In this document: positions 2,057-50,979 of the stretch, in pieces
How positions within the stretch are numbered: the stretch's first letter is position 1
Layout of the letters: each line of letters opens with the position of its first letter
Assembly (NCBI GenBank): GCA_964365185.1
Contig: CAYIOP010000002.1
Span: forward strand, 2,684-66,683
DNA: 64,000 nt
Origin: an uncultured Candidatus Saccharibacteria bacterium
Lineage (GTDB): Bacteria; Patescibacteriota; Minisyncoccia; UBA6257; 2-01-FULL-56-20
Reading direction: 5' to 3'
Position numbers and translations under genes: made by a program
The notes under the pieces: generated by a model
The model's database searches: none
Told to the model about the DNA's origin: nothing
The model's input: only the letters and a program-made list of their open reading frames with translations

Positions 2057-3325
2057 TCATTCGATCATTTTCAACACCTCCCCCACCGCCCCTCTCTCAC
2101 TCCACGGCAATTTCTTACCATTTTCAATATGAATAAATTCCTCACTCCCTTTGCCGGTTATAACCACCATGTCTCCTTCTTTCGCCAATCCAATCGCTTT
2201 TCTAATCGCCTCTTTCCTGTCCAAAATTTCTAAAACTTCTCGCGATTTGCTATTTGCTATTTGCAAAACCCCTTCCTTTAATTCATCTAAAATGTTTTGG
2301 GGTTTCTCATTGTACGGATCCTCATTCGTCAAAATTATCTCATCACAAAACTCCGCCGCAATTTTACCCATCACCGGCCGTTTCCACTTGTCTCTCCCGC
2401 CACCCGCCGCGCCCAATACACAAATCAATCTTCCTCTTTGCTCTTTGCCATTTGCGTTTTGCAAATTATCATAGACCCTACGCAAACTCTCCGGCGTATG
2501 CGCATAATCAATCACCACTTTAAACGGCTTCTCCTTTATAATTTCCATTCTTCCCGCCACTCCTTTAAATTCCAAAACCGCCTCCTTAATCACTTCGTCT
2601 TTTACTCCCACTAACTTTGCTAAACTTATGGCTGCGGATAAATTTTCCTGATTAAAATTACTAGAAAATAAATAAAGGTTATTGTCAATAGTAAGAAAAT
2701 ACTTCTTTAAATCCCTTTTAGAATAAAAATTAATTTTTTCTCTATTAAATTGATTTTTAAAAAAATCCGCGCTTTGATCATCCTGATTAAAAAATAATTT
2801 TCCGCCTTGCTTAAAAACTTTTTTAAAAAAATTTAATTTTGCTTGCCGATATTTTTCAAACGAGCCGTGCGCCTCAATATGCTCTGGCGCCAAATTTGTT
2901 AAAAGTCCGGCTTGCCACCGAATAAATCGGTGTCGCGACAAAACCACTCCTTCTGAAGTCACCTCGATTACTGCGTAGCGACATCCGGAGTTAACCGCTC
3001 TATTTAAAAATCGCTGAATAAACATTCTGCCCGGCATAGTGTTCTCGGTTAAATTTTTCTCCTGATCATTCCCGATTTTTACATAAAGCGAAGATAAAAA
3101 AGCTGTTTTTTCTTGCGCCTTATCTAAAATGCTTTTTAAAATTTCCATCACCGTAGTCTTGCCTTTAGTGCCGGTCACCCCAATCACCAAGATTTTCCGG
3201 CTGGGAAAAAAATAAATTAAAGCGCTAAAAAACGCCCATAAAAAATGGTAGGTTCTAACCAAAAATTTCAATTTATAAATTAACCGGAAAAATCCGGTTT
3301 GTTTTAAAAATCCCAAAGTATTCAT
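2057..3325 (-). CDS. Mur ligase family protein, MurE-like (UDP-MurNAc-tripeptide synthetase), with an N-terminal membrane segment
   Basis: Mur ligase P-loop VIGVTGTKGKTTV; DYAHTPESL motif typical of MurE/MurC-type ligases; LTNLAPEHIEAHG central motif. Confidence 0.65.
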   Translation of the reverse strand: MNTLGFLKQTGFFRLIYKLKFLVRTYHFLWAFFSALIYFFPSRKILVIGVTGTKGKTTVMEILKSILDKAQEKTAFLSSLYVKIGNDQEKNLTENTMPGRMFIQRFLNRAVNSGCRYAVIEVTSEGVVLSRHRFIRWQAGLLTNLAPEHIEAHGSFEKYRQAKLNFFKKVFKQGGKLFFNQDDQSADFFKNQFNREKINFYSKRDLKKYFLTIDNNLYLFSSNFNQENLSAAISLAKLVGVKDEVIKEAVLEFKGVAGRMEIIKEKPFKVVIDYAHTPESLRRVYDNLQNANGKEQRGRLICVLGAAGGGRDKWKRPVMGKIAAEFCDEIILTNEDPYNEKPQNILDELKEGVLQIANSKSREVLEILDRKEAIRKAIGLAKEGDMVVITGKGSEEFIHIENGKKLPWSERGAVGEVLKMIE

Positions 3326-3455
3326 ACCCCGTAGGAAATTGCCGGAAAAGCGTTTTTGTAAATATAAGAATATGTTTTCATTAAAAACTAAGTTTTACAA
3401 AGGATTTCTAATTACTGCATCTTTGACGGCAAACGCTTTATTTCCTACGGGGCAT
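3323..3455. repeat. 133-bp element with ~16-bp terminal inverted repeats (CATACCCCGTAGGAAAT ... ATTTCCTACGGGGCAT), copy 1
   Basis: TIRs at 3323-3339 and 3440-3455. A second copy of identical length lies at 16832-16964. The left end overlaps the start codon of the murE-like gene. Confidence 0.55.
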
Positions 3456-3467
3456 AAATAAATTAAG

Positions 3468-4049
3468 CTACTTACCCCGGCCGGATAAATTCTTCAAAGC
3501 CATTTTTAATTTATTCTCCAATGTGTCTTTTGAATCAAGTTTTGAAACTATATTTCTAACCTCATTTCTCTTATACCCCAAATCCACCAATACCTCAATC
3601 AAATCATTATTCGATTCTATTTTTGAAATCATATCTCCAGAACTAATGGTGCCAATTTTATTTCTTAATTCCAAAATAATTCTCTGGGCCAATTTTTCGC
3701 CTATCCCTCCGGCCTTAACCAAAAGGTCTCCTCTACCTTCCTTAATAGCTACTAAAACATCTTCCAAATGAGACGCCTCCATCACTGATCGAGCTGACTT
3801 CGGGCCAACTCCGCTAATAGAAATCAACAATTTAAAAAATTCCAGCTCTTTATCGCTGGAAAAACCATATAGTTCAATCCCACCTTCTTTGATATAAAGA
3901 TAGCAAAATATCGTAATTAAATCGCCTATCTTTACAGAGACCAGGAAATTTTTAAGGCAAAAGACCTGGAAACCGATTCCACCTACATCAACCACCAAAG
4001 AATTATCTCTGACTAAAACCGCTTTTCCGAATAAACTATAAATCACCAT
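3468..4049 (-). CDS. ruvA: Holliday junction DNA helicase RuvA
   Basis: N-terminal OB fold (VVDVGGIGFQV...LYGF) and HhH region LISISGVGPKSARSVM; ~190 aa, typical RuvA. Confidence 0.85.
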   Translation of the reverse strand: MVIYSLFGKAVLVRDNSLVVDVGGIGFQVFCLKNFLVSVKIGDLITIFCYLYIKEGGIELYGFSSDKELEFFKLLISISGVGPKSARSVMEASHLEDVLVAIKEGRGDLLVKAGGIGEKLAQRIILELRNKIGTISSGDMISKIESNNDLIEVLVDLGYKRNEVRNIVSKLDSKDTLENKLKMALKNLSGRGK

Positions 4050-4084
4050 CTTATTATAGCTAAATCAACAAATTAACCAAATTT

Positions 4085-4354
4085 AATGTTTAGCGCTAAA
4101 CATTCACTTTTCTTTTATCAGCCGATAAGTCGATAAAACCTACGTTTTTTGAAAAAACACTCAAAACAATGTTTAGCGCTAAACATCGATAATTAATCCA
4201 TAAACCGATAAGCCCGTAGAATCTAGATTTTTGCGAATTTTACTGAAAACAATGTTTAGCGCTAAACAATTTCTATCGTAGTAATCCGGCAAAATATACT
4301 ACTATATATAGTATTGCCGCATTTCCGTATATTAAGATGTTTAGCGCTAAACAT
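4085..4354. promoter_or_regulatory. array of four near-identical 18-20-bp perfect palindromes (A)ATGTTTAGCGCTAAACAT(T) with ~84-bp period, in the ruvA/yraN divergent intergenic region
   Basis: Copies at 4085-4104, 4169-4186, 4252-4268 (one mismatch) and 4337-4354. The sequence between copies is also partly repeated (ccgataag..aaaacaatg). Candidate operator array. Confidence 0.45.
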
Positions 4355-4387
4355 TAAACATTTCAAAAAATCTGCTAAAATTTAAAG

Positions 4388-8845: not shown

Positions 8846-9961
8846 TTACGCCTTTAGTATCGGCATCAAAATATAAAAATAAGAGGCCTCATTAAGCGAT
8901 TTGATAAGCGAGGGCTTATTGTCTTGCTCGTTAACTCCCAAAAAAATTTCTTCACCTCCCAAAACTTTAAGTCCTTCCAGTAAATATCGCCAATTAAATC
9001 CCACCTCACCAAAATTTTTCTGAATTTTAGCTGGCAAAAAATACCGATTCTCGCCCACCTCACGATTAGCTGAAAAAATCTCAATCGCCTTTCCTCCTTC
9101 CGCTGATTTAAATCTAATTTCATTGGTCTGCCCGCTAAAAATTCCGGCCAGTTTTAAAGCATTTATTAATCCTTCTTTTTCCACTGTTATTTCCGCGTCA
9201 AATTTTTTCGGCAAAATACCAGAATAATCAGGAAAATTGCCGTCGGTTAGCCGAGAAATAAATTCCCAATTGCCGGTCTTAAATAAAACTTGGTTTTGAT
9301 CGTGATAAATAGAAAGTTTGTCCTGATCCTTTAAAATTCTTGCCAATTCTTGGGCCGCACGAAGTGGTATTAAAAAATTAAAATTTTGAGAATGATTAGA
9401 TTTGAATTGGTTAGATCCAATTGTCTTTTCCGCCAACCGGAAACTGTCCGTGCCGACTATTTTTAAATTATTTAAAGAAAAATTGAAAATAATATTGTTT
9501 AATTCGGTTCTCAAGTCCGAAAATTGAGTGGCTGCCAAAACCTGAGTCAGGGCTTCTTTAAAAATCCCGGCCTCAAGCTCTAAAAAGTCTTCCTCGTTTT
9601 TTATTTTAGGGATAATTGGAAAATCTTCCGCCGGAAAAACTTGAGTTAAGGCCTCGTAATTGTCGGTTTTGACCTCAAATTGACTGCCTTTTTTTTCTAA
9701 ATTCAATCTTTCGCTCTGAAGATTATTAATCAGATTTAAAAAAGTGCTTAGTGGAATATTTATTTTTCCTTTCTCAATTATTTTTCCAGAAAGATAATAG
9801 CTAATCGCCAACTCTAAATTAGTTGTAATTAATTTTATTTTATCAGCTTGAGCTTCAATTTGGACACATTTTAAAATCGGCAGATTTAAATTTTCTCCGC
9901 TAGCCCTTCCGACAATATCTAACCCTTCTTTTAAATTAGTTCGCATTGTTATCAACTTCAT
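8846..9961 (-). CDS. dnaN: DNA polymerase III beta subunit (sliding clamp)
   Basis: 371 aa starting MKLITMRTNLKEGLDIVGRA...ILKCVQIEAQADKIKLITTNLELAI; immediately downstream of dnaA. Confidence 0.85.
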   Translation of the reverse strand: MKLITMRTNLKEGLDIVGRASGENLNLPILKCVQIEAQADKIKLITTNLELAISYYLSGKIIEKGKINIPLSTFLNLINNLQSERLNLEKKGSQFEVKTDNYEALTQVFPAEDFPIIPKIKNEEDFLELEAGIFKEALTQVLAATQFSDLRTELNNIIFNFSLNNLKIVGTDSFRLAEKTIGSNQFKSNHSQNFNFLIPLRAAQELARILKDQDKLSIYHDQNQVLFKTGNWEFISRLTDGNFPDYSGILPKKFDAEITVEKEGLINALKLAGIFSGQTNEIRFKSAEGGKAIEIFSANREVGENRYFLPAKIQKNFGEVGFNWRYLLEGLKVLGGEEIFLGVNEQDNKPSLIKSLNEASYFYILMPILKA

Positions 9962-10122
9962 AATTATAATAATTAATTAATTAAATTACTGATGTTATTA
10001 ATTGCACAATTCTGGGGAAAACTAAAAATTATTTTTTAAAACTTAATTAATCAAATGTTTTTCCCGCCGCCAATTTATTTTTTTCTCGCGTCGCCAGTTT
10101 AATAGCTGTGGGTAAGGTGGGG

Positions 10123-11490
10123 CTACTTATTATTAAGGAGCGACTCCTTAATCATGATAATTTTTTGATTAAACGGAGAATTCTTATTAATTTCCTGGTT
10201 TATTTTCTCAAAAGAGTGAATTACGGTTGTGTGGTCTCTTTTTAACTTTTCCCCAATGTATGGGTAGGACATCCTCAGGATTTCCCGAAGTAAGTACATT
10301 GCCACTTGTCTTGGCTCAACCATTTCCTTTTTTCGCGACCTACTGACCAAATCCGGCAATTGAATGGCATAAAAATCTGCCACCGCTTTTAAAATTTGAT
10401 CATCAGTAATTCGGCCAAAGAAATTTTGAGTTGTTTTTTCTATAATTTCTTCCACTACTTTCTTGTCGATCTCTCCACCCTTACTGTCTTGATAAAACAC
10501 AAGCTTATTTACCACCCCCTCTAATTCTCTAATATTTCTCTGGATAGAATGAGCCACTAAATCAATTACTCCCTCCGGCAATTGCCGATTTGCGGCTTGC
10601 AAACGATTTTTTATAATTGCCACCCTCATCTCGTAATCAGGATAACTAATATCCACCGTTAGCCCTCCGTCAAACCTCGACCTTAGCCGTTCTTCAAGGG
10701 TTGGGATTGATTGCGGCGGCCGGTCTGAAGAAATAATGATTTGTTTGTTGTTTTCGTAGAGCGCGTTAAAAGTATGAAAAAATTCTTCCTCGGTTTTTTC
10801 TTTGCCTCCGATAAATTGAATATCGTCGATAATGAGCACGTCGCAATCTCGGTATTTTTTCTTGATATCCTCCATTCTTTTATTGCGTATCGCCCACACC
10901 ACATCGCTGGTAAATTTCTCCGAAGAAACATATCTCGACCTAAGTTTGCCGCCATATTTAAATTTGATTTCATTGCCCAGCGCCTGAAGCAAATGGGTCT
11001 TACCCAGGCCCACTCCGCCATAAATAAAAAAAGGATTATATTTTGAACCCACCTCTTGGATAATCGCCAAGGCGGCCGCATGAGCCAATTCATTTGAGGA
11101 TCCCACCACAAAAGAATCTAAAGTATAACGAGGATTAAGATTTGTCTCGGGATCTACTCTTACTAAATCCAAACCCGCCTGGCTTTCTAGCCGGCCCATA
11201 TCCACGCTAATTTCCAAAGAAGATTTTTTGTTTAGCTTGGGTTCGTGATTAGTAACAATAAATTCCAGTTTTTTGGCTGAGCTATCAAAATTTCTTAAGA
11301 TTCCTAAGATATTTTTTTCGTATTTATTCTCCACCCATTCCTTAGCAAAGTTATTAGGTAGGGCAATATAAAAAATTCCCTCCTTCTGATCCACTAGTTG
11401 GCTATTCTTGAGCCAAGTCACAAAGTTAGCTCTTGAAAGCTGGATCTCCATCTCACTTAAAGTTTGTTGCCAAAGTTGATTTAGATCCAT
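10123..11490 (-). CDS. dnaA: chromosomal replication initiator protein DnaA
   Basis: AAA+ Walker A GGVGLGKTHLLQA, Walker B LIIDDIQF; sensor motifs; domain IV QVAMYLLRE...HTTV. Confidence 0.9.
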   Translation of the reverse strand: MDLNQLWQQTLSEMEIQLSRANFVTWLKNSQLVDQKEGIFYIALPNNFAKEWVENKYEKNILGILRNFDSSAKKLEFIVTNHEPKLNKKSSLEISVDMGRLESQAGLDLVRVDPETNLNPRYTLDSFVVGSSNELAHAAALAIIQEVGSKYNPFFIYGGVGLGKTHLLQALGNEIKFKYGGKLRSRYVSSEKFTSDVVWAIRNKRMEDIKKKYRDCDVLIIDDIQFIGGKEKTEEEFFHTFNALYENNKQIIISSDRPPQSIPTLEERLRSRFDGGLTVDISYPDYEMRVAIIKNRLQAANRQLPEGVIDLVAHSIQRNIRELEGVVNKLVFYQDSKGGEIDKKVVEEIIEKTTQNFFGRITDDQILKAVADFYAIQLPDLVSRSRKKEMVEPRQVAMYLLREILRMSYPYIGEKLKRDHTTVIHSFEKINQEINKNSPFNQKIIMIKESLLNNK

Positions 11491-11639
11491 CTAGCTTATT
11501 CTAGTTATAAAAACTTTTAAGTCAAAAGACCCATTTCCGGATAATTGGGGACTATCTGTTGAAAACTCATTTTTTATCTTGGTGGACGAAAATAAAATTT
11601 GCCACTCCTGCTTTTCTATGCTAAAATTTTCACAATCTT
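11491..11639. promoter_or_regulatory. candidate oriC / dnaA-rpmH divergent control region
   Basis: AT-rich intergenic region between divergent dnaA and rpmH. Only weak DnaA-box-like 9-mers (TTATCCGGA, TTATCAACC). The dnaA-dnaN spacer 9962-10122 carries TGTGGGTAA, an 8/9 match to the DnaA box. Confidence 0.3.
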
Positions 11640-11780
11640 ATGTCGCGAACTTATCAACCTAAAAAAAGGAAAAGAGCGAAAGCTCATGGATTTAGATCTC
11701 GGCAAAAAAGCGCTGGCGGTCGCCGAGTCCTAAGCCGCCGAAGAGCAAAAAGCCGTCGGAAACTTACCGTTTCTAAGTAA
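11640..11780 (+). CDS. rpmH: 50S ribosomal protein L34
   Basis: Not in the ORF track (46 aa). Translation: [46 protein letters not shown]. Confidence 0.85.
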
Positions 11781-11795
11781 AAAGTCATATTTTCT

Positions 11796-12128
11796 ATGAT
11801 TCCTAAGAAGCTTCGCCTTCCCAAGGACCAGTTTTTCAAAAAAAATAACGGCGTTACCACTCCTATCTGTGTTATTAAATTCAAAGCCAATTCTTTGGGC
11901 CACAATCGCTTTGCGGTGGTGGTTTCCTCCAAAGTCGAAGCGAAGTCCACTCTTCGCCACCTCATCAAGCGCCGCTTCTTTGCTGTTTTAAAAAGCTGGC
12001 CTAATCTGGGTCTAGACCTTATAATTATAGCCCTGCCCGAAGTTAAAAATTTTTCTTTCGCCGACATTAAAATTAAAATTCTTGAATCAATTCCCAAAAT
12101 AAAAATAAAAAATGGGCCATCTTTTTAA
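11796..12128 (+). CDS. rnpA: ribonuclease P protein component
   Basis: 110 aa; RFAVVVSSKV..RHLIKRRF motif region; canonical position after rpmH. Confidence 0.75.
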   Translation: MIPKKLRLPKDQFFKKNNGVTTPICVIKFKANSLGHNRFAVVVSSKVEAKSTLRHLIKRRFFAVLKSWPNLGLDLIIIALPEVKNFSFADIKIKILESIPKIKIKNGPSF

Positions 12129-12870
12129 TTTAATTCTTGTTGAGCCGCTGCTTAATATCCTCGTCTTTCTTTATAAAACCATTGCTTTGGGGGATTTTGG
12201 GCTGGCGATCATTTACCTCACCATCCTAATTCGACTGCTCCTTTTCCCTGTTTTTAGTAAAAGCGCGATTCATCAGCGCGAGATGCAAAAAATCCAGCCC
12301 AAGCTAAAGAAAGTTCAGGAACAGCACAAAAATGATCGCGCCAAGCAGGCCGAAGCCATGATGGCGCTATATAAAGAGCACAAAGTAAACCCTCTTTCTA
12401 GTTTTTTCTGGTTGCTTATTCAAATTCCGGTTTTTATTGCTCTCTACCAGGTTTTTTCAAAAAGCTTAACCCTCGATTCTCTAAGCGGTCTTTATTCTTT
12501 TATCACTCCCCCCGCCTCCCTTGATTATTCGTTCTTGGGCTTGATTAATCTTACAAAAAGTAATATTTTAATAATTGGCTTAGCCGCCATAGCTCAATAT
12601 TTTCAAGGCCGGTTGTCTCTCCCTAAGGTTGATCCCAGCCAAACCTTGTCGTCCGCCGAAAAAATGAGCCGAAGTATGGTTTTTTTAGGCCCCGCCCTAA
12701 CCATCTTTGTTTTATTTAATTTCCCCTCTGCCCTAGGCCTTTTCTGGCTTACCACCTCGCTTTTTTCAATCGGCCAGCAATTCGTTATTAATCATCGCGA
12801 CCATGGAAAATTGGACCAACTTCGTACAAATAACCCTCCAAAAGATGGGGTTCAAGGACTTCCGAGTTGA
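12112..12870 (+). CDS. yidC: membrane protein insertase YidC (short form)
   Basis: Multi-TM protein; LLFPVFSKSAIHQREMQKIQPKLKKVQEQHKND...MMALYKEHKVNP matches the YidC/Oxa1 core. Confidence 0.8.
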   Translation: MGHLFNLILVEPLLNILVFLYKTIALGDFGLAIIYLTILIRLLLFPVFSKSAIHQREMQKIQPKLKKVQEQHKNDRAKQAEAMMALYKEHKVNPLSSFFWLLIQIPVFIALYQVFSKSLTLDSLSGLYSFITPPASLDYSFLGLINLTKSNILIIGLAAIAQYFQGRLSLPKVDPSQTLSSAEKMSRSMVFLGPALTIFVLFNFPSALGLFWLTTSLFSIGQQFVINHRDHGKLDQLRTNNPPKDGVQGLPS

Positions 12871-15322: not shown

Positions 15323-16033
15323 TTATTTTACAAAAGTTAATTTAATTTCCCGCGACGCCCGTTCGGTAAATTTTCTGGGATTTGAGACATTTAAAGTTGT
15401 TTTTAATTCAAAATTCGGCGCCACCTCTTGGTTTAAAACAACACTTAATTGATTTGATTTTTCGTTTTTTGCCGCTGGTCGGTCGTTAACTTTCCAAGAA
15501 AATTCAAGCTCCCCTTCGTTCTGAACGTTAAAAAAATACGGCTTAGCTAAAATTTGAATTCCTCGGTTTGAAAATTTATTTTCAAAAAACGGAGCAATTA
15601 GCGTCACCTCTGGCCTCACCGAGGGAATTAAAATGTTTTTAATAAGCATCCGCCCCTTATAATCTAGAATTTTAATTCTTAATTCCTGTTCTCCTGTCCC
15701 CACTACTCTAAAAGATGTCTTTTGGATGCCCACTCCGGTTTTAATCAAATCATCATTTAAATACCAGTAAATTTCGTTTTTAGAAAGGTTAACCAATCTT
15801 CCCGCATCAATTATTTCAAAGGCCGCTGAAATCAGCGAAGAATCAGTCGGCAAAATCTTGCCGGTAAATTCCGCTGGCGCGTAAGTATTAGCTCTCCAGG
15901 TGATTAAAAAATCTGGCTCCTTGGTCTGCGCCCGGGCTGTCAGGCCAAAAATTATTGCCAGCACCATTCCTAAAAACAGAATTATTACCCCGAATTTTAT
16001 CAGTTGTGGCCTATTGAATCCTATAAAAATCAT
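15323..16033 (-). CDS. hypothetical membrane-anchored protein (T4SS-like cluster)
   Basis: 236 aa, single N-terminal TM, beta-rich periplasmic part. Confidence 0.4.
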   Translation of the reverse strand: MIFIGFNRPQLIKFGVIILFLGMVLAIIFGLTARAQTKEPDFLITWRANTYAPAEFTGKILPTDSSLISAAFEIIDAGRLVNLSKNEIYWYLNDDLIKTGVGIQKTSFRVVGTGEQELRIKILDYKGRMLIKNILIPSVRPEVTLIAPFFENKFSNRGIQILAKPYFFNVQNEGELEFSWKVNDRPAAKNEKSNQLSVVLNQEVAPNFELKTTLNVSNPRKFTERASREIKLTFVK

Positions 16034-16219: not shown

Positions 16220-16834
16220 CTACGCCGTCATCCTGTAATCATTTTCTTCTTCGTCATCTTCGGGTTTTGCCTGCGGCTCCGGCAATTTTCGGGTAATATC
16301 CATCACTTTTTCTATTGGCTCTTTTTCTATACCAAAGGCCTCTTCTGAAACCTTAGGGGTTCCTGTTTCTTTTAACCCTCCTTCAGTTTTTGAAACAGCT
16401 TGGCCCGCTTCAGAACCACGAGCTGAACCCTTTGCTAATCCCTCGCTCGGAGCGCCTCCTCTTGGAGTTTGAACGCTTTTTTTAGGCATTCCCTTTTTGC
16501 CCCCAGCGCTTTGGCTAATTTGTACGGCTTTTGCCGCCGCGGATTCTGGATGTCTGTCGGCGTATACTGTCATCCAAAAACCAATTGTGAGGAGTGGCAG
16601 ATCTCCCACCCAAGGGATAAGTTCTGTCAGCCAAGACACTCCCATTCGGCCAAATCCTAAGCCCCTAAACCACAAATATATAACTATTATCGACGCCAGG
16701 ATGTCTCCTAGCCAGAAGTCATCTAAACCAAAAAAAATCAAAATAAGTTCAATCCCGTCAATTAAAATTAAATATATCGAAATCAGAACAATCTCTACTG
16801 TCTTAAGCTTTGGCTTCGGTTTCTCTTCATCCAT
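16220..16834 (-). CDS. hypothetical polytopic membrane protein with acidic C-terminus (T4SS-like cluster)
   Basis: 204 aa, 3 predicted TM segments. Its start codon is embedded in the left TIR of repeat copy 2. Confidence 0.4.
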   Translation of the reverse strand: MDEEKPKPKLKTVEIVLISIYLILIDGIELILIFFGLDDFWLGDILASIIVIYLWFRGLGFGRMGVSWLTELIPWVGDLPLLTIGFWMTVYADRHPESAAAKAVQISQSAGGKKGMPKKSVQTPRGGAPSEGLAKGSARGSEAGQAVSKTEGGLKETGTPKVSEEAFGIEKEPIEKVMDITRKLPEPQAKPEDDEEENDYRMTA

Positions 16835-16964
16835 GCTCCGTAGGAAATTAAATATTTTTTGTTAATTTGTAAACGACGTTTTCATATTATCTTACTTTGT
16901 CATAATTCTGCTAAATTATATTAGCTCAAAAATATTTTATTTTTCGTTATTTCCTACGGGGCAT
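16832..16964. repeat. 133-bp TIR element, copy 2 (CATGCTCCGTAGGAAAT ... ATTTCCTACGGGGCAT)
   Basis: Same length and ends as 3323-3455. The internal sequence is AT-rich with shared blocks (ttttgtaaa, gttttcat). Confidence 0.55.
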
Positions 16965-16978
16965 ATTTTATCTATAAT

Positions 16979-18736
16979 CTACGATTTTCCCTCTAAAATC
17001 TGTTGTGGATTCGTGGTGATAATTTTATCCTCAAAATAGGAAGCGATAATTTGAATCGAAACGTGTCTTCGGCCGGCAAAAAATAATCCTGTTCCCACTT
17101 CGGCTGTTAAAAGTAAACTTTTTTCCGCTTCAGTTAAACCAAAAGCCTTAGCCACGATATCAATGGTAGCCGGCGATTGTTTTAAAAGAATCTGAATTGA
17201 GGAGTTGGTGATAATCGGCCGGCCGTAAGGCGAGCGCAAAAAGTCCTCCACGTCTTGAGTAATAGTCGAGACCCCTAAGTAATATTTTCGAGCCCGTTTC
17301 ACCAGTCCAAAAAGGAAAATGGCGCTGTCTTCATATTTCATCATCCACCACGCCTCGTCGATAATTAAAAGCCGTTTTTTGAGTTGAGCGCGGGTTAAAT
17401 TCCAAATAAAATTTAAAATTATATACATCGCAATTGGCCGGAGCTCTTCTTCTAGATCGCGAATCGAAAAAACAATCAATCGGTTATTAACATTAATGTT
17501 GGTCGGCTGGTTAACAAATCCCGAAAAGCTACCTTTAGTGTATTTATAAAGTCGCTCCGCAATTCCTTTGCCCCCTTCCAAATTCCGTAAAACCGTCTCT
17601 AAATCTTCAAGCAGCGGTGCCTTCGCTCCGGTAAAATCCTCCCCAGCCACAATTTCGCGCGAAGCATAGGTTTCGGTAATTGCTCTATCCAAAAGCGCGT
17701 CTTCCACCGCCGTCACTTTGCCAAGCATTAGTTTAACCAGTCCTGCCATATTCACGATGTGAGACCGCAGAACATCCGATGCCGTCTCTCCGTCCGGAAT
17801 AGTTGGCACGTCAAACGGGTTAATGTGTTCGTCCGACGAGAGCGAGATATTAAAGAAACTTCCTCCAAAGGCCTCACATAACCTCTGGTATTCGTTTTCT
17901 GGGTCAATCACAATTACATCCACTCCGGTCATTAAGTAGCGGATAATCTCCAGTTTGGTAGTGTAGGATTTGCCTGAACCGGACTTGGCAAAAACTACCT
18001 GATTGGCGTTTTCAAGCGAAAACCGGTCAAAAATAATCAAATTATTATTGTGCCGGTTGATGCCGTACATAATGCCCTGGCTGGAGTTTAAGTCCTCAGA
18101 AACAAACGGAAAAAAAGAAGATACTGGCCCAGAATTCATTGGTGATTTCACATCGATTTTATCTTCTACGAGCGGGAAAATGGATTGCAACCCTTCAAGT
18201 TGTTGGAAAAGAGCGGGCTTAATATAAATCAGTTTCGCGTCCAAGATATTTACAACATGGCTTTCTAGTTTTGAGAGTTCCTCTAGGGTGTCTCCATAGA
18301 TGGCAATATAAACTCCCAAATCAAATAATTTTTCCTGGGCTTGTTGCAGAGAATCTCTTAAGGATTCCACGTCTTGAAGAGCGGTCTCTAGCATCGGGTC
18401 TCTCACTAAGCCCTTTTCTTGTTGGTCATTGATTTGGGATTCTATTTGAGCTGATTTTTTTCTTAAATTTTTAAGGGCAATGCCGGTGTCGATTGGATTT
18501 ATAAAAAGTGAGACGTCAAAAATGTTAGGCAAATTAATAAAGGGCTCAAACCAGCCGGTCGAGAGATAGCGTGGATAAGAAAAAACAAAAAACGTCTTGA
18601 CGAATTTGTCGCCGATTTTAAGGTAATTTGAATTCACCTGAACGCCGGCCGGCGAAATTATTTTTTTTGTTTCTTTAAAATTATTTTCCATATCTTTACA
18701 CTTCCTTTCCCGGAATATTTTGAAGTTCTTTTTCAA
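16979..18736 (-). CDS. VirB4/TrbE-family conjugal transfer ATPase, C-terminal ATPase portion
   Basis: Walker A FAKSGSGKSYTTK, Walker B LLIIDEAWWMM; TrbE/VirB4 C-terminal domain organisation. Confidence 0.75.
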   Translation of the reverse strand: MKKNFKIFRERKCKDMENNFKETKKIISPAGVQVNSNYLKIGDKFVKTFFVFSYPRYLSTGWFEPFINLPNIFDVSLFINPIDTGIALKNLRKKSAQIESQINDQQEKGLVRDPMLETALQDVESLRDSLQQAQEKLFDLGVYIAIYGDTLEELSKLESHVVNILDAKLIYIKPALFQQLEGLQSIFPLVEDKIDVKSPMNSGPVSSFFPFVSEDLNSSQGIMYGINRHNNNLIIFDRFSLENANQVVFAKSGSGKSYTTKLEIIRYLMTGVDVIVIDPENEYQRLCEAFGGSFFNISLSSDEHINPFDVPTIPDGETASDVLRSHIVNMAGLVKLMLGKVTAVEDALLDRAITETYASREIVAGEDFTGAKAPLLEDLETVLRNLEGGKGIAERLYKYTKGSFSGFVNQPTNINVNNRLIVFSIRDLEEELRPIAMYIILNFIWNLTRAQLKKRLLIIDEAWWMMKYEDSAIFLFGLVKRARKYYLGVSTITQDVEDFLRSPYGRPIITNSSIQILLKQSPATIDIVAKAFGLTEAEKSLLLTAEVGTGLFFAGRRHVSIQIIASYFEDKIITTNPQQILEGKS

Positions 18737-19447: not shown

Positions 19448-19924
19448 AGAGCTAAAAACGAAAAACTAAAAACGCAAAGTAAAGAATTAAGGGTTACCCT
19501 TTCTCTTTTTAAGGGTTAAGATGCTGGAGCCAAGAATATTAGCGATTTCAGTTGTTTCTTGTATCAATAATTCAACCTCTTCTAGGTTAGCTTTCTTAGC
19601 ATCTCTAAGTAAATACAGCCAAAACTTGCTCTCGTTGGCGGATTTTAAAGCATAACTAAAAAAATTAGTGAAGTCCTTTCTCGTGCTTCCAGCTTGAGCT
19701 TCAATAATATTCGCGCCTATACTAGTAGCGCTTCTCAGTAATTGCTTCGCGATTATTTGAACCGCTAAATCTTTTTTATCGAGGTTATCAATAAATTTTA
19801 TAATCTTCAAAGCCAATGAATAAGATTTCTTTTTTGAATCCATTCTTATTTTATATCTTTACACTTTTCGTTTTTAGCTTCTAATTAAATTCTACTTTAC
19901 GTTTTTCGCTTTTCGTTTTTAGCT
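19448..19924. mobile_element. IVS-like cassette: four-helix-bundle gene bracketed by ~30-bp imperfect inverted repeats
   Basis: Left IR agctaaaaacgaaaaactaaaaacgcaaagtaaag (19451-19484). Right IR ctttacgtttttcgcttttcgtttttagct (19896-19924). An extra direct copy cttttcgtttttagct lies at 19864-19880. Confidence 0.4.
19487..19843 (-). CDS. four-helix-bundle protein (23S rRNA intervening-sequence protein family)
   Basis: LAVQIIAKQLLRSATSIGANIIEAQAGSTRKDFTNFFSYALKSANESKFWL is the characteristic family core. Confidence 0.8.
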   Translation of the reverse strand: MDSKKKSYSLALKIIKFIDNLDKKDLAVQIIAKQLLRSATSIGANIIEAQAGSTRKDFTNFFSYALKSANESKFWLYLLRDAKKANLEEVELLIQETTEIANILGSSILTLKKRKGNP

Positions 19925-50175: not shown

Positions 50176-50979
50176 ATGACAAACAACGAAGCCGATAAAA
50201 ATATCCAAGGGCTTAAGCCAAGCGAAGAGGAGTTTGGCGCGGACCGGACGCAAAGGTGCATCGACCTCATGCGACCCGAGGTTAAGGAGCTTTTAAATCT
50301 CCCGCTTAAAGACAAAATAGAAAAGACGGAGGAGATAATCAAAGAGACCATTAAAAAATACAAAAACCCCGGAATAGGTTTCAGCGGCGGCGGTGACAGC
50401 GAAGCCATGCTTCATATTGCCATGAAAATAAAACACGACTGGCCAATACTTCTCGTTGACACCAGATACGAGTTTCCCGAGACCTTAGATTTCGTGGAGC
50501 AACTAAGAAAGGATTGGAACTTCGAGAGTTTTACCGTGGTTAGGGCCGGCACTGATAGAGCCGATGAATTTAAGGAAAAATATGGAGCTGGAACAACCGA
50601 GTTTACTCTTGAGTTTAATAAATGGCACAAGATAGACCCGTTAATCCGCGGCATAAAACAGTTAGGACTCGATGCGTTTCTTGGTGGCATCAGGGGAGTC
50701 GAGCACGAAGAAAGAGCGAAGGAGCAATTCTTTTCTCCCAGAACCGATCCGCCGCATGTGAGGGTCCATCCGATACTTTTCTGGACTAGGGACGATGTGC
50801 AGACATACCTGAAAGACAACGGGCTCCCTCATAATCCTGTCTATGATAAGGGCTATACCTCTCTGGGTTCAACCCTCGATACTACTCCCAATCAAAATCC
50901 CAACATGCACGAAAGAGCTGGCCGAGGGGTTGAGAGAGAAAGGATAATGAAACAACTCCGAAGCTTGGGTTATAACTAA
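50176..50979 (+). CDS. PAPS reductase/FAD synthetase-family (ATP-pyrophosphatase-fold) protein
   Basis: GIGFSGGGDSEAMLHIA PP-loop (SGGxDS) and LLVDTRYEFPETLDFV. Confidence 0.7.
   Translation: MTNNEADKNIQGLKPSEEEFGADRTQRCIDLMRPEVKELLNLPLKDKIEKTEEIIKETIKKYKNPGIGFSGGGDSEAMLHIAMKIKHDWPILLVDTRYEFPETLDFVEQLRKDWNFESFTVVRAGTDRADEFKEKYGAGTTEFTLEFNKWHKIDPLIRGIKQLGLDAFLGGIRGVEHEERAKEQFFSPRTDPPHVRVHPILFWTRDDVQTYLKDNGLPHNPVYDKGYTSLGSTLDTTPNQNPNMHERAGRGVERERIMKQLRSLGYN

Follow-up and report, generated by a model that had tools for sequence, protein, structure and literature searches.

The repeated element and its gene neighbourhood

We analysed a stretch of 64,000 nt (64 kb; hereafter the window) of contig CAYIOP010000002.1, which was obtained from 0.1-um-filtered groundwater of the Hainich well H43 and belongs to an organism of the candidate phyla radiation (CPR)/Patescibacteria. 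A type IV secretion system (T4SS) cluster in the window, recognized from neighbouring genes of the PrgI, TraC-like, P-loop_TraG/DUF87 and T4SS_pilin kinds, contains a 126-bp element, here called copy 2, between a VirB4-like ATPase gene and a gene for a 204-aa membrane protein. A further element, copy 1, is flanked by ruvA (3468-4049) and a Mur-ligase gene (2057-3325), whose ATG is 3325-3323. All genes that flank the two copies are on the minus strand. The coordinates of the features are collected in Table 1.

The initial annotation had described 16832-16964 as an element bounded by terminal inverted repeats (TIRs) and as the second copy of an element at 3323-3455. A repeat finder confirmed this description, since the same 13-nt inverted termini are separated by exactly 100 nt in both copies. 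The limits had to be shifted slightly: copy 2 itself occupies 16836-16961 and has the 13-nt TIRs CCCCGTAGGAAAT and ATTTCCTACGGGG, and the span first given is the element plus almost all of both 4-bp duplications. On the plus strand, 16832-16965 reads CATG, CTCCGTAGGAAAT, 100 nt, ATTTCCTACGGGG and CATA, with a single mismatch in the terminus (CTCC at 16836-16839), and 3323-3456 reads CATA, CCCCGTAGGAAAT, 100 nt, ATTTCCTACGGGG and CATA, the element proper of copy 1 being 3327-3452. On the gene strand, the 4-bp repeats that flank copy 2 are TATG (upstream) and CATG (downstream).

In minus-strand order, the stop codon TAG of the VirB4-like gene (16979-16981) is followed by 13 nt, TATG (16965-16962), the element (16961-16836) and CATG. 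Both copies have this layout in common on the gene strand, namely an upstream stop codon, 11-13 nt, TATG, the element and (T/C)ATG, and the final ATG is the first start codon of the downstream open reading frame (ORF) at both loci. It was therefore correct that copy 2 fills the spacer between the VirB4-like gene and the next gene and stands at a start codon, the downstream repeat supplying the ATG of the 204-aa gene. The start call of this ORF is sound because its N-terminus (MDEEKPKPK) aligns with the starts of orthologues (MEEEKK and MNEEEKPQPK). Translation of copy 2 in the gene frame meets stop codons, the element contains no ORF of at least 80 aa, and no intrinsic terminator was predicted at copy 2.

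With up to two mismatches allowed, the 13-mer terminus matched only the four arms of copies 1 and 2 in the whole 64 kb. In the window alone, a short core of the terminus is not beyond chance, at least four matches having been found in 10 of 100 shuffled sequences. The internal blocks that the two copies had been said to share were traced to chance: in an ungapped comparison, the 100-nt interiors agree at 30 of 100 positions, and 114 of 500 shuffles reached or beat the score of their global alignment. The alignment being at shuffle level, homology of the interiors was rejected.

Table 1. Coordinates of the features at copy 2, its neighbouring genes and copy 1
Feature	Position in window	Strand	Remarks
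Upstream copy of the target-site duplication, TATG on gene strand	16962-16965	-	13 nt past the VirB4-like stop codon
Upstream terminal inverted repeat, CCCCGTAGGAAAT on gene strand	16949-16961	-	
Subterminal hairpin H1 of type A, weak and degenerate in copy 2, AACGAAAAATAAAATATTTTTGAGCT	16923-16948	-	Folding energy; compensatory variants in family
Candidate outward promoter signals	16886-16920	-	TATAAT 16920-16915; TTAGCA 16914-16909, 17 nt, GATAAT 16891-16886
Right subterminal motif ACAAAAAATATTTA, conserved (family consensus ACGGAAAATATTTA)	16849-16862	-	Complementary to the H1 3' arm
Downstream terminal inverted repeat, ATTTCCTACGGAG on gene strand	16836-16848	-	One mismatch to consensus creates GGAG
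Downstream copy of the duplication, CATG	16832-16835	-	Contains the ATG (16834-16832) from which the 204-aa gene starts
Downstream gene, 204-aa membrane protein of T4SS cluster	16220-16834	-	No Pfam match
Upstream gene, VirB4/TraC-like ATPase	16979-18691	-	P-loop_TraG, AAA_10, DUF87
Copy 1, type B element	3323-3456	-	TIRs 3327-3339 and 3440-3452; perfect TATG duplication 3323-3326 and 3453-3456

A mobile family of CPR genomes

We scanned one genome per species, metagenome contigs and viral contigs with the pattern CCGTAGGAAAT-N85-115-ATTTCCTACGG, which needs both 11-nt cores exact and 85-115 nt apart. The genome scan yielded 28 loci, where by our own arithmetic about two matches were expected by chance. 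Twenty-six of them lie in 11 Patescibacteria metagenome-assembled genomes (MAGs), so that at least this number of MAGs carries the family; they are labelled Parcubacteria, Liptonbacteria, "Saccharibacteria" or Patescibacteria group, with at most six loci per MAG. The two matches outside the CPR (Okeania, L028, and Ignavibacteriaceae, L031) lack the outer CCCC/GGGG and were discounted as fortuitous or unrelated. Among metagenome contigs, 98 stretches matched, mostly from groundwater and sediment and many from Hainich, including the source site H43; the paired-terminus pattern had no match in the viral contigs. By the initial annotation, its reading would be refuted if the two window copies were the only ones and differed throughout their interiors, and the first part of this does not hold: about 130 more copies were found, and removal of duplicate loci reduced 133 raw copies to 97 unique simple elements of 120-135 bp. 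The family is found almost only in Patescibacteria (CPR), and these family-level data remove the doubt left by the window-only chance test of the terminus core.

The 13-nt terminus CCCCGTAGGAAAT and its complement are at both ends of all retrieved copies, the 11-nt core of it being required by the pattern. The 93 copies that could be oriented fall into two subfamilies, 66 of type A (including copy 2) and 27 of type B (including copy 1). Type A consists of a terminus, a hairpin H1 (consensus GGCGAGAAAATAT-N-ATATTTTCGAGCC), a variable core, ACGGAAAATATTTA and a terminus, and type B of a terminus, AAAGCGTTTGCCGTCAAAG, a variable core, AACGCTTTTCCGGCA and a terminus. Copies 2 and 1 accordingly have only their termini in common, and these common ends mean that the same enzyme presumably acts on both types. 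A search of the whole window against Rfam 15 at the gathering threshold gave no match, and blastn of both copies against plasmids returned only AT-rich chance matches. In the searchable literature we found no description of miniature inverted-repeat transposable elements (MITEs) in the CPR and nothing relevant on the terminus sequence; the family is previously undescribed.

Sister families with the variant terminus (T/C)CCCGTTAGAAAT were also seen. They include 226-bp elements with perfect 4-bp duplications (TTCA, TGAA; L059:347-572, L062:530-755 and L072:1887-2112), elements of 286-311 bp (L008:5969-6279 and L082:3679-3964), and a minimal palindrome of 29 bp (L071:2486-2514) made of two variant termini and CAT and flanked by CCCG on both sides.

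The flanks of the copies carry the marks of insertion. A perfect 4-bp direct repeat was found in 57 of 93 oriented copies, and three of the four positions match in 20 more. At least 16 duplication sequences occur (TATG 22, TATA 11, CAAA, CGAG, TTAG, CAAG, TACA, CAGG and others), and these flanks are not an extension of the inverted repeat because they are direct, not inverted. As a consensus, the target can be written approximately as G|YAWR, with TATG and TATA as the commonest forms, and the reconstructed target logo is similar in the subfamilies (type A about G|T-A-T-G, type B about G|T-A-(T/A)-A).

Four loci of one MAG that have unrelated flanks agree in their interiors to 97-99%, and six Hainich loci with differing flanks do so to 95-100%, the median interior identity of random type A pairs being 65%. 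These near-identical interiors represent recent bursts, and the family has been recently active. Elements also nest: a type B element lies inside the left end of a type A element with the duplication CGAG, and once the type B element and one CGAG are taken out, the rejoined sequence agrees with intact type A ends to 96-98%. The outer duplications of such A::B composites (244-263 bp) are perfect. Type B elements with different interiors were seen at the same CGAG in the 5' arm of the type A hairpin at several loci (L025:2328-2586, L029:2343-2610, L057:3179-3441, L071:2463-2880 and others). This may mean that insertions are particularly frequent in the hairpin or that the A::B composites move as single units, as their intact outer duplications suggest.

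Empty sites were found as well. VirB4 orthologues with 85-90% protein identity have 19-37 nt from the VirB4 stop codon to the next ATG, with no trace of the terminus. The reconstructed empty junctions are GATAAAATATGGATGAAGAG for copy 2 and TTAATTTATTTATGAATACTTTGG for copy 1, and the former lines up by eye with the empty site of a relative, GGAAAATATTATGGAAGAAG. At another locus, a single element in L085 corresponds to two in L050 and L082, the flanks being 96% identical. In the VirB4/next-gene junction of another Hainich H43 CPR genome, whose VirB4 is 86% identical, we saw a different element of about 98 nt (GCTACGGAATAC ... GTATTCTGTAGC; L038:4714-4821 and L039:4543-4650), the GCTACGGAATAC-type terminus of which is absent from the window. 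It may be that elements land in this junction repeatedly.

Taken together, the family is short and non-coding, has TIRs and a duplication of fixed length and variable sequence, and shows dispersed near-identical copies and empty sites, so that copy 2 is very probably a non-autonomous DNA transposon of a MITE family of about 120-135 bp without coding capacity. Some points weigh against this reading. The exact-core pattern makes the invariance of the termini partly a matter of construction and under-samples decayed copies. The closest empty site belongs to a relative at 90% protein identity, not to the same population. A cognate autonomous insertion sequence (IS) with the same termini was not found within a limited sample, the transposase search having covered 929 kb of fetched CPR loci and 251 viral loci: terminus pairs 160-4000 bp apart in the 929 kb of copy-rich CPR loci were only nested or composite MITEs and chance pairs, and single-terminus scans of viral contigs (74-90 matches each, 251 viral loci) revealed no credible partner terminus or transposase-bearing element.

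Start-codon placement, the type A interior and alternative explanations

The two subfamilies differ in where they stand. In type A, 35 of 66 copies have the ATG of an ORF within 4 nt of the right end, mostly as GGGG-T-ATG, and none has one at the left end. Type B abuts an ATG in 2 of 27 copies, copy 1 being one of the two. Between co-directional genes, the orientation of the copies is 27 versus 2. The start-codon habit depends on the type A interior and not on target choice alone, because type B has the same termini and rarely abuts an ATG.

A sequence of events can be proposed for copy 2. A DDE-type transposase acting in trans would move the element with 4-bp staggered cuts; the enzyme class is suggested only by the duplication, and staggered cleavage of this type is proposed because the duplication is a fixed 4 bp of variable sequence. 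The insertion would have hit a (T/C)ATG at the beginning of the 204-aa T4SS gene, where the duplication regenerated the ATG and left the ORF intact. The VirB4 junction, formerly 13 nt, would thereby have grown to about 145 nt, with the right terminus of the element as the final 13 nt of its leader sequence. Type A copies at gene starts would then be kept in one orientation (35 versus 0) by a directional signal of the interior, which is the weakest step; the candidates for this signal are an outward-facing promoter and/or the sense-strand hairpin H1. That the type A interior carries a directional signal which keeps the downstream gene expressed, and so leads to orientation-dependent retention, is a tentative proposal, to which we give a little less than an even chance. 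As a whole, the explanation of copy 2 as a MITE inserted at a start codon is held with good confidence.

The initial annotation had suggested that the element may supply the promoter and leader of the next gene and that -10/-35 prediction be used. Copy 2 does make up the entire spacer and the immediate leader. Prediction on the minus strand found a perfect TATAAT and a TTAGCA-17-GATAAT pair, both facing the 204-aa gene. In the 66 type A copies, only perfect TATAAT is in excess toward the gene, 14 versus 5 on the other strand, a weak strand bias. A promoter role of the type A element is possible. Shine-Dalgarno motifs are almost absent from this genome: among the gene starts of the window (for example 3468-4049, 50176-50979 and 15323-16033), such a motif was present in only about 1 of 48 long ORFs, and in several genes a TATAAT precedes the ATG by 5-9 nt, which suggests that leaderless or near-leaderless starts are widespread in this genome. 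The empty VirB4 junctions of relatives contain GAGG or GGAG.

The hairpin H1 has a mean free energy of -7.8 kcal/mol in the family, compared with -2.4 in shuffles and -1.6 kcal/mol in copy 2. Its stems vary in sequence and yet pair (CAGAGAG/CTCTCTG, CGGGCG/TGCCCG, GATACA/TGTATC, CAAGTG/CACTTG, GCC..GGC versus GGC..GCC), and they often surround a conserved tandem G.A. On the gene-sense strand, G.U mismatches outnumber A.C mismatches 21 to 6 in a count that ignores shared ancestry, and this asymmetry hints at a role of H1 at the RNA level. H1 as a putative constrained structure is better supported than the promoter. Template switching at quasi-palindromes could alternatively keep H1 paired. RNAalifold on a MAFFT alignment, which is not structure-aware, recovered only the invariant terminal stem.

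If the element is transcribed together with the gene upstream, its termini are predicted to form a stem of 13-21 bp with both AUGs at the foot. For copy 1, the start codon is predicted to be buried in read-through RNA (probability of being unpaired 0.13 versus 0.44). An orthologous pair of copies (L009/L026) bears on constraint: the two loci have in common the element, with 85% interior identity, and a stretch of about 22 nt upstream that includes TGTATAAT; identity is only 65% in the adjacent protein and 33-66% at the synonymous positions. This comparison of sequences is suggestive of constraint on the element. The pair may nevertheless result from independent insertion, since 81% identity is also reached by a non-orthologous member of that sublineage.

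Several results count against a directional signal. The number of promoter-like sites in the copy 2 region, among them those facing the gene, equals the shuffle expectation. Across the 66 type A copies, -10-like hexamers are strand-neutral, 71 versus 67. The accessibility of the copy 2 start codon differs little between read-through RNA (0.42) and RNA started internally (0.47-0.52). Most genes here follow the replication direction deduced from GC skew, so that a replication-linked insertion bias could give the orientation bias.

The same hexamer count and gene directions, together with the TATG/TATA target logo common to both subfamilies and the near-identical recent copies, which indicate ongoing selfish spread, favour the strongest rival, a purely selfish MITE with no adopted function. 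Start codons would then be the preferred TATG target, an insertion that regenerates the ATG would be among the few non-lethal ones where spacers are very short, and the single orientation would come from a harmful polar effect of the other orientation or from a replication-linked insertion bias. Against this, the interior matters, type B with the same termini being at start codons in 2 of 27 copies versus 35 of 66 for type A; H1 pairing is kept by compensatory changes, with more G.U than A.C on the sense strand; and the orthologous pair is more alike within the element than at the synonymous sites of the adjacent gene. We regard the selfish MITE as a serious contender that falls somewhat short of even odds.

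The boldest extension of the proposed directional signal is that type A is a mobile expression cassette for Shine-Dalgarno-poor genomes with leaderless or near-leaderless starts. As an orientation-dependent 5' leader brought in by a transposon, it would rewire operon junctions, among them that between VirB4 and the next gene. An insertion on an ATG would duplicate it and place H1 and the long terminal stem between the old and the new ATG. Both AUGs would lie at the foot of one helix, the first opening a 5-codon mini-ORF (MPRRK-stop), and either an internal promoter or re-initiation or shunting across the stem base would drive the gene. We consider this extension unlikely.

A host cis-regulatory RNA module that is not mobile and is conserved between the genes of operons, with the long terminal stem serving RNase III processing, attenuation or translational coupling, would fit the good folding of the terminal stem on the gene strand (z of -5.5 in copy 2 and of -6.6 in copy 1), the predicted sequestration of the copy 1 start codon in read-through RNA and the covariation in H1. 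The terminal stem is invariant, so it shows no covariation, and Rfam holds no matching family. What points instead to DNA insertion is that the 4-bp direct repeats vary, that copies nest, that orthologous sites are empty and that near-identical copies precede unrelated genes. An RNA role is compatible with mobility and does not replace it; as the sole explanation it is contradicted by the duplications and empty sites, and we hold it to be very improbable.

Movement by a single-strand HUH transposase, as a REP/RAYT element or an IS200/IS605-derived PATE, is suggested by the conserved subterminal hairpin and by the biased orientation with respect to the genes, two traits that are typical of IS200/IS605 relatives. 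Elements of the IS200/IS605 type insert beside a fixed short target, without duplication, and have no long terminal inverted repeats. In the present family, many different sequences occur as direct 4-bp flanking repeats, and the 13-nt inverted termini are perfect, which makes an HUH-moved element more improbable still. Least credible of all is a phase-variation switch, in which a site-specific recombinase would flip a promoter lying between the inverted repeats: two loci do have the same short inverted repeats around unrelated AT-rich interiors with -10-like boxes, a pattern seen at shared-invertase promoters in Bacteroides, and it was rejected because the copy 2 locus has one orientation in four independent assemblies, with no flipped reads or contigs found, and target-site duplications and nesting are present; moreover, all 35 type A copies that abut a start codon face the same way, and no recombinase was seen among the neighbours in an annotation that covered the window partly.

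Elsewhere in the window, PF05635 genes (23S_rRNA_IVP, Avd-like four-helix bundle) occur within CPR T4SS clusters, at 19487-19843 in the window and in two copies in the cluster of one relative (L038:828-1199 and 1841-2209). An origin-type neighbourhood adjoins the T4SS cluster (8846-12870), with dnaN (8846-9961, minus strand), dnaA (10123-11490, minus strand) and rnpA/yidC (11796-12870, plus strand); a minimum of the cumulative GC skew and a switch of gene orientation are located near 38.6-38.9 kb, away from the dnaN/dnaA/rnpA region. Four perfect palindromes of 18-22 bp, (A)ATGTTTAGCGCTAAACAT(T), about 84 bp apart, lie at 4082-4358, within the 340 bp that separate ruvA (minus strand) from a UPF0102 gene (plus strand). 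Their spacers are unrepeated and TRF calls no tandem array; the array looks like operator sites for a dimeric regulator.

Relation to known elements and significance

Among known systems, the Correia elements (CREE/NEMIS) of Neisseria are the nearest in kind. They are non-coding, about 100-155 bp long, with 26-bp termini and a TA duplication, and are present in many copies in a small genome; typically they are intergenic near gene starts and co-transcribed, with termini that form a long RNA hairpin. We know of no cognate transposase for them. The family described here resembles them as short non-coding TIR elements in many copies near gene starts, with no transposase identified, but has no sequence similarity to them and differs in its 13-nt termini, 4-bp duplication and CPR hosts. 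To our knowledge, strict ATG placement and a single orientation (35 versus 0 here) are not features of Correia elements.

ERIC/IRU and YPAL of enterobacteria and RUP of Streptococcus pneumoniae are imperfectly palindromic, measure about 107-127 bp and lie within operons, in intergenic regions that are transcribed; for them, orientation-dependent effects on neighbouring mRNAs have been reported. They have other termini and another target duplication and no similarity to the present family, which comprises two subfamilies with only the 13-nt ends in common. The Rickettsia palindromic elements are MITE-like and occur in the reduced genome of a host-dependent bacterium, where they are inserted in frame inside coding regions and translated. 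Both kinds are tolerated at positions that keep reading frames intact, but the elements described here stand immediately outside the ORF, whose start codon they restore, and have stop codons in the gene frame. As for possible parents, the IS1380, IS701 and IS5 groups duplicate 4 bp, as this family does, and IS1380-type ends start with CC; the CC ends are a lead only, no transposase-bearing element having been found.

Element copies are likely break points for assembly and gene calling, and assembly breaks induced by such repeats are likely in general. A Logan contig of the copy 2 locus (L004:1-130) begins inside the upstream terminus (TAGGAAAT...) at a coverage of 3-5x; this start is probably a random break. 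The copies can also be used as strain-level markers.

CPR/Patescibacteria genomes are about 1 Mb, dense and usually described as poor in mobile DNA, and this family is abundant in them and recently active. It sits inside operons, including the T4SS cluster and the cell-wall/recombination locus of the window, and its copies are a possible source of expression change in unculturable organisms. As a kind of element, the family is ordinary; noteworthy are its hosts, how abundant it is in streamlined genomes, the one-way start-codon placement and the contrast between types A and B. That contrast at the same ends, together with the start-codon habit, amounts to a natural experiment on what leaders need in Shine-Dalgarno-poor bacteria.

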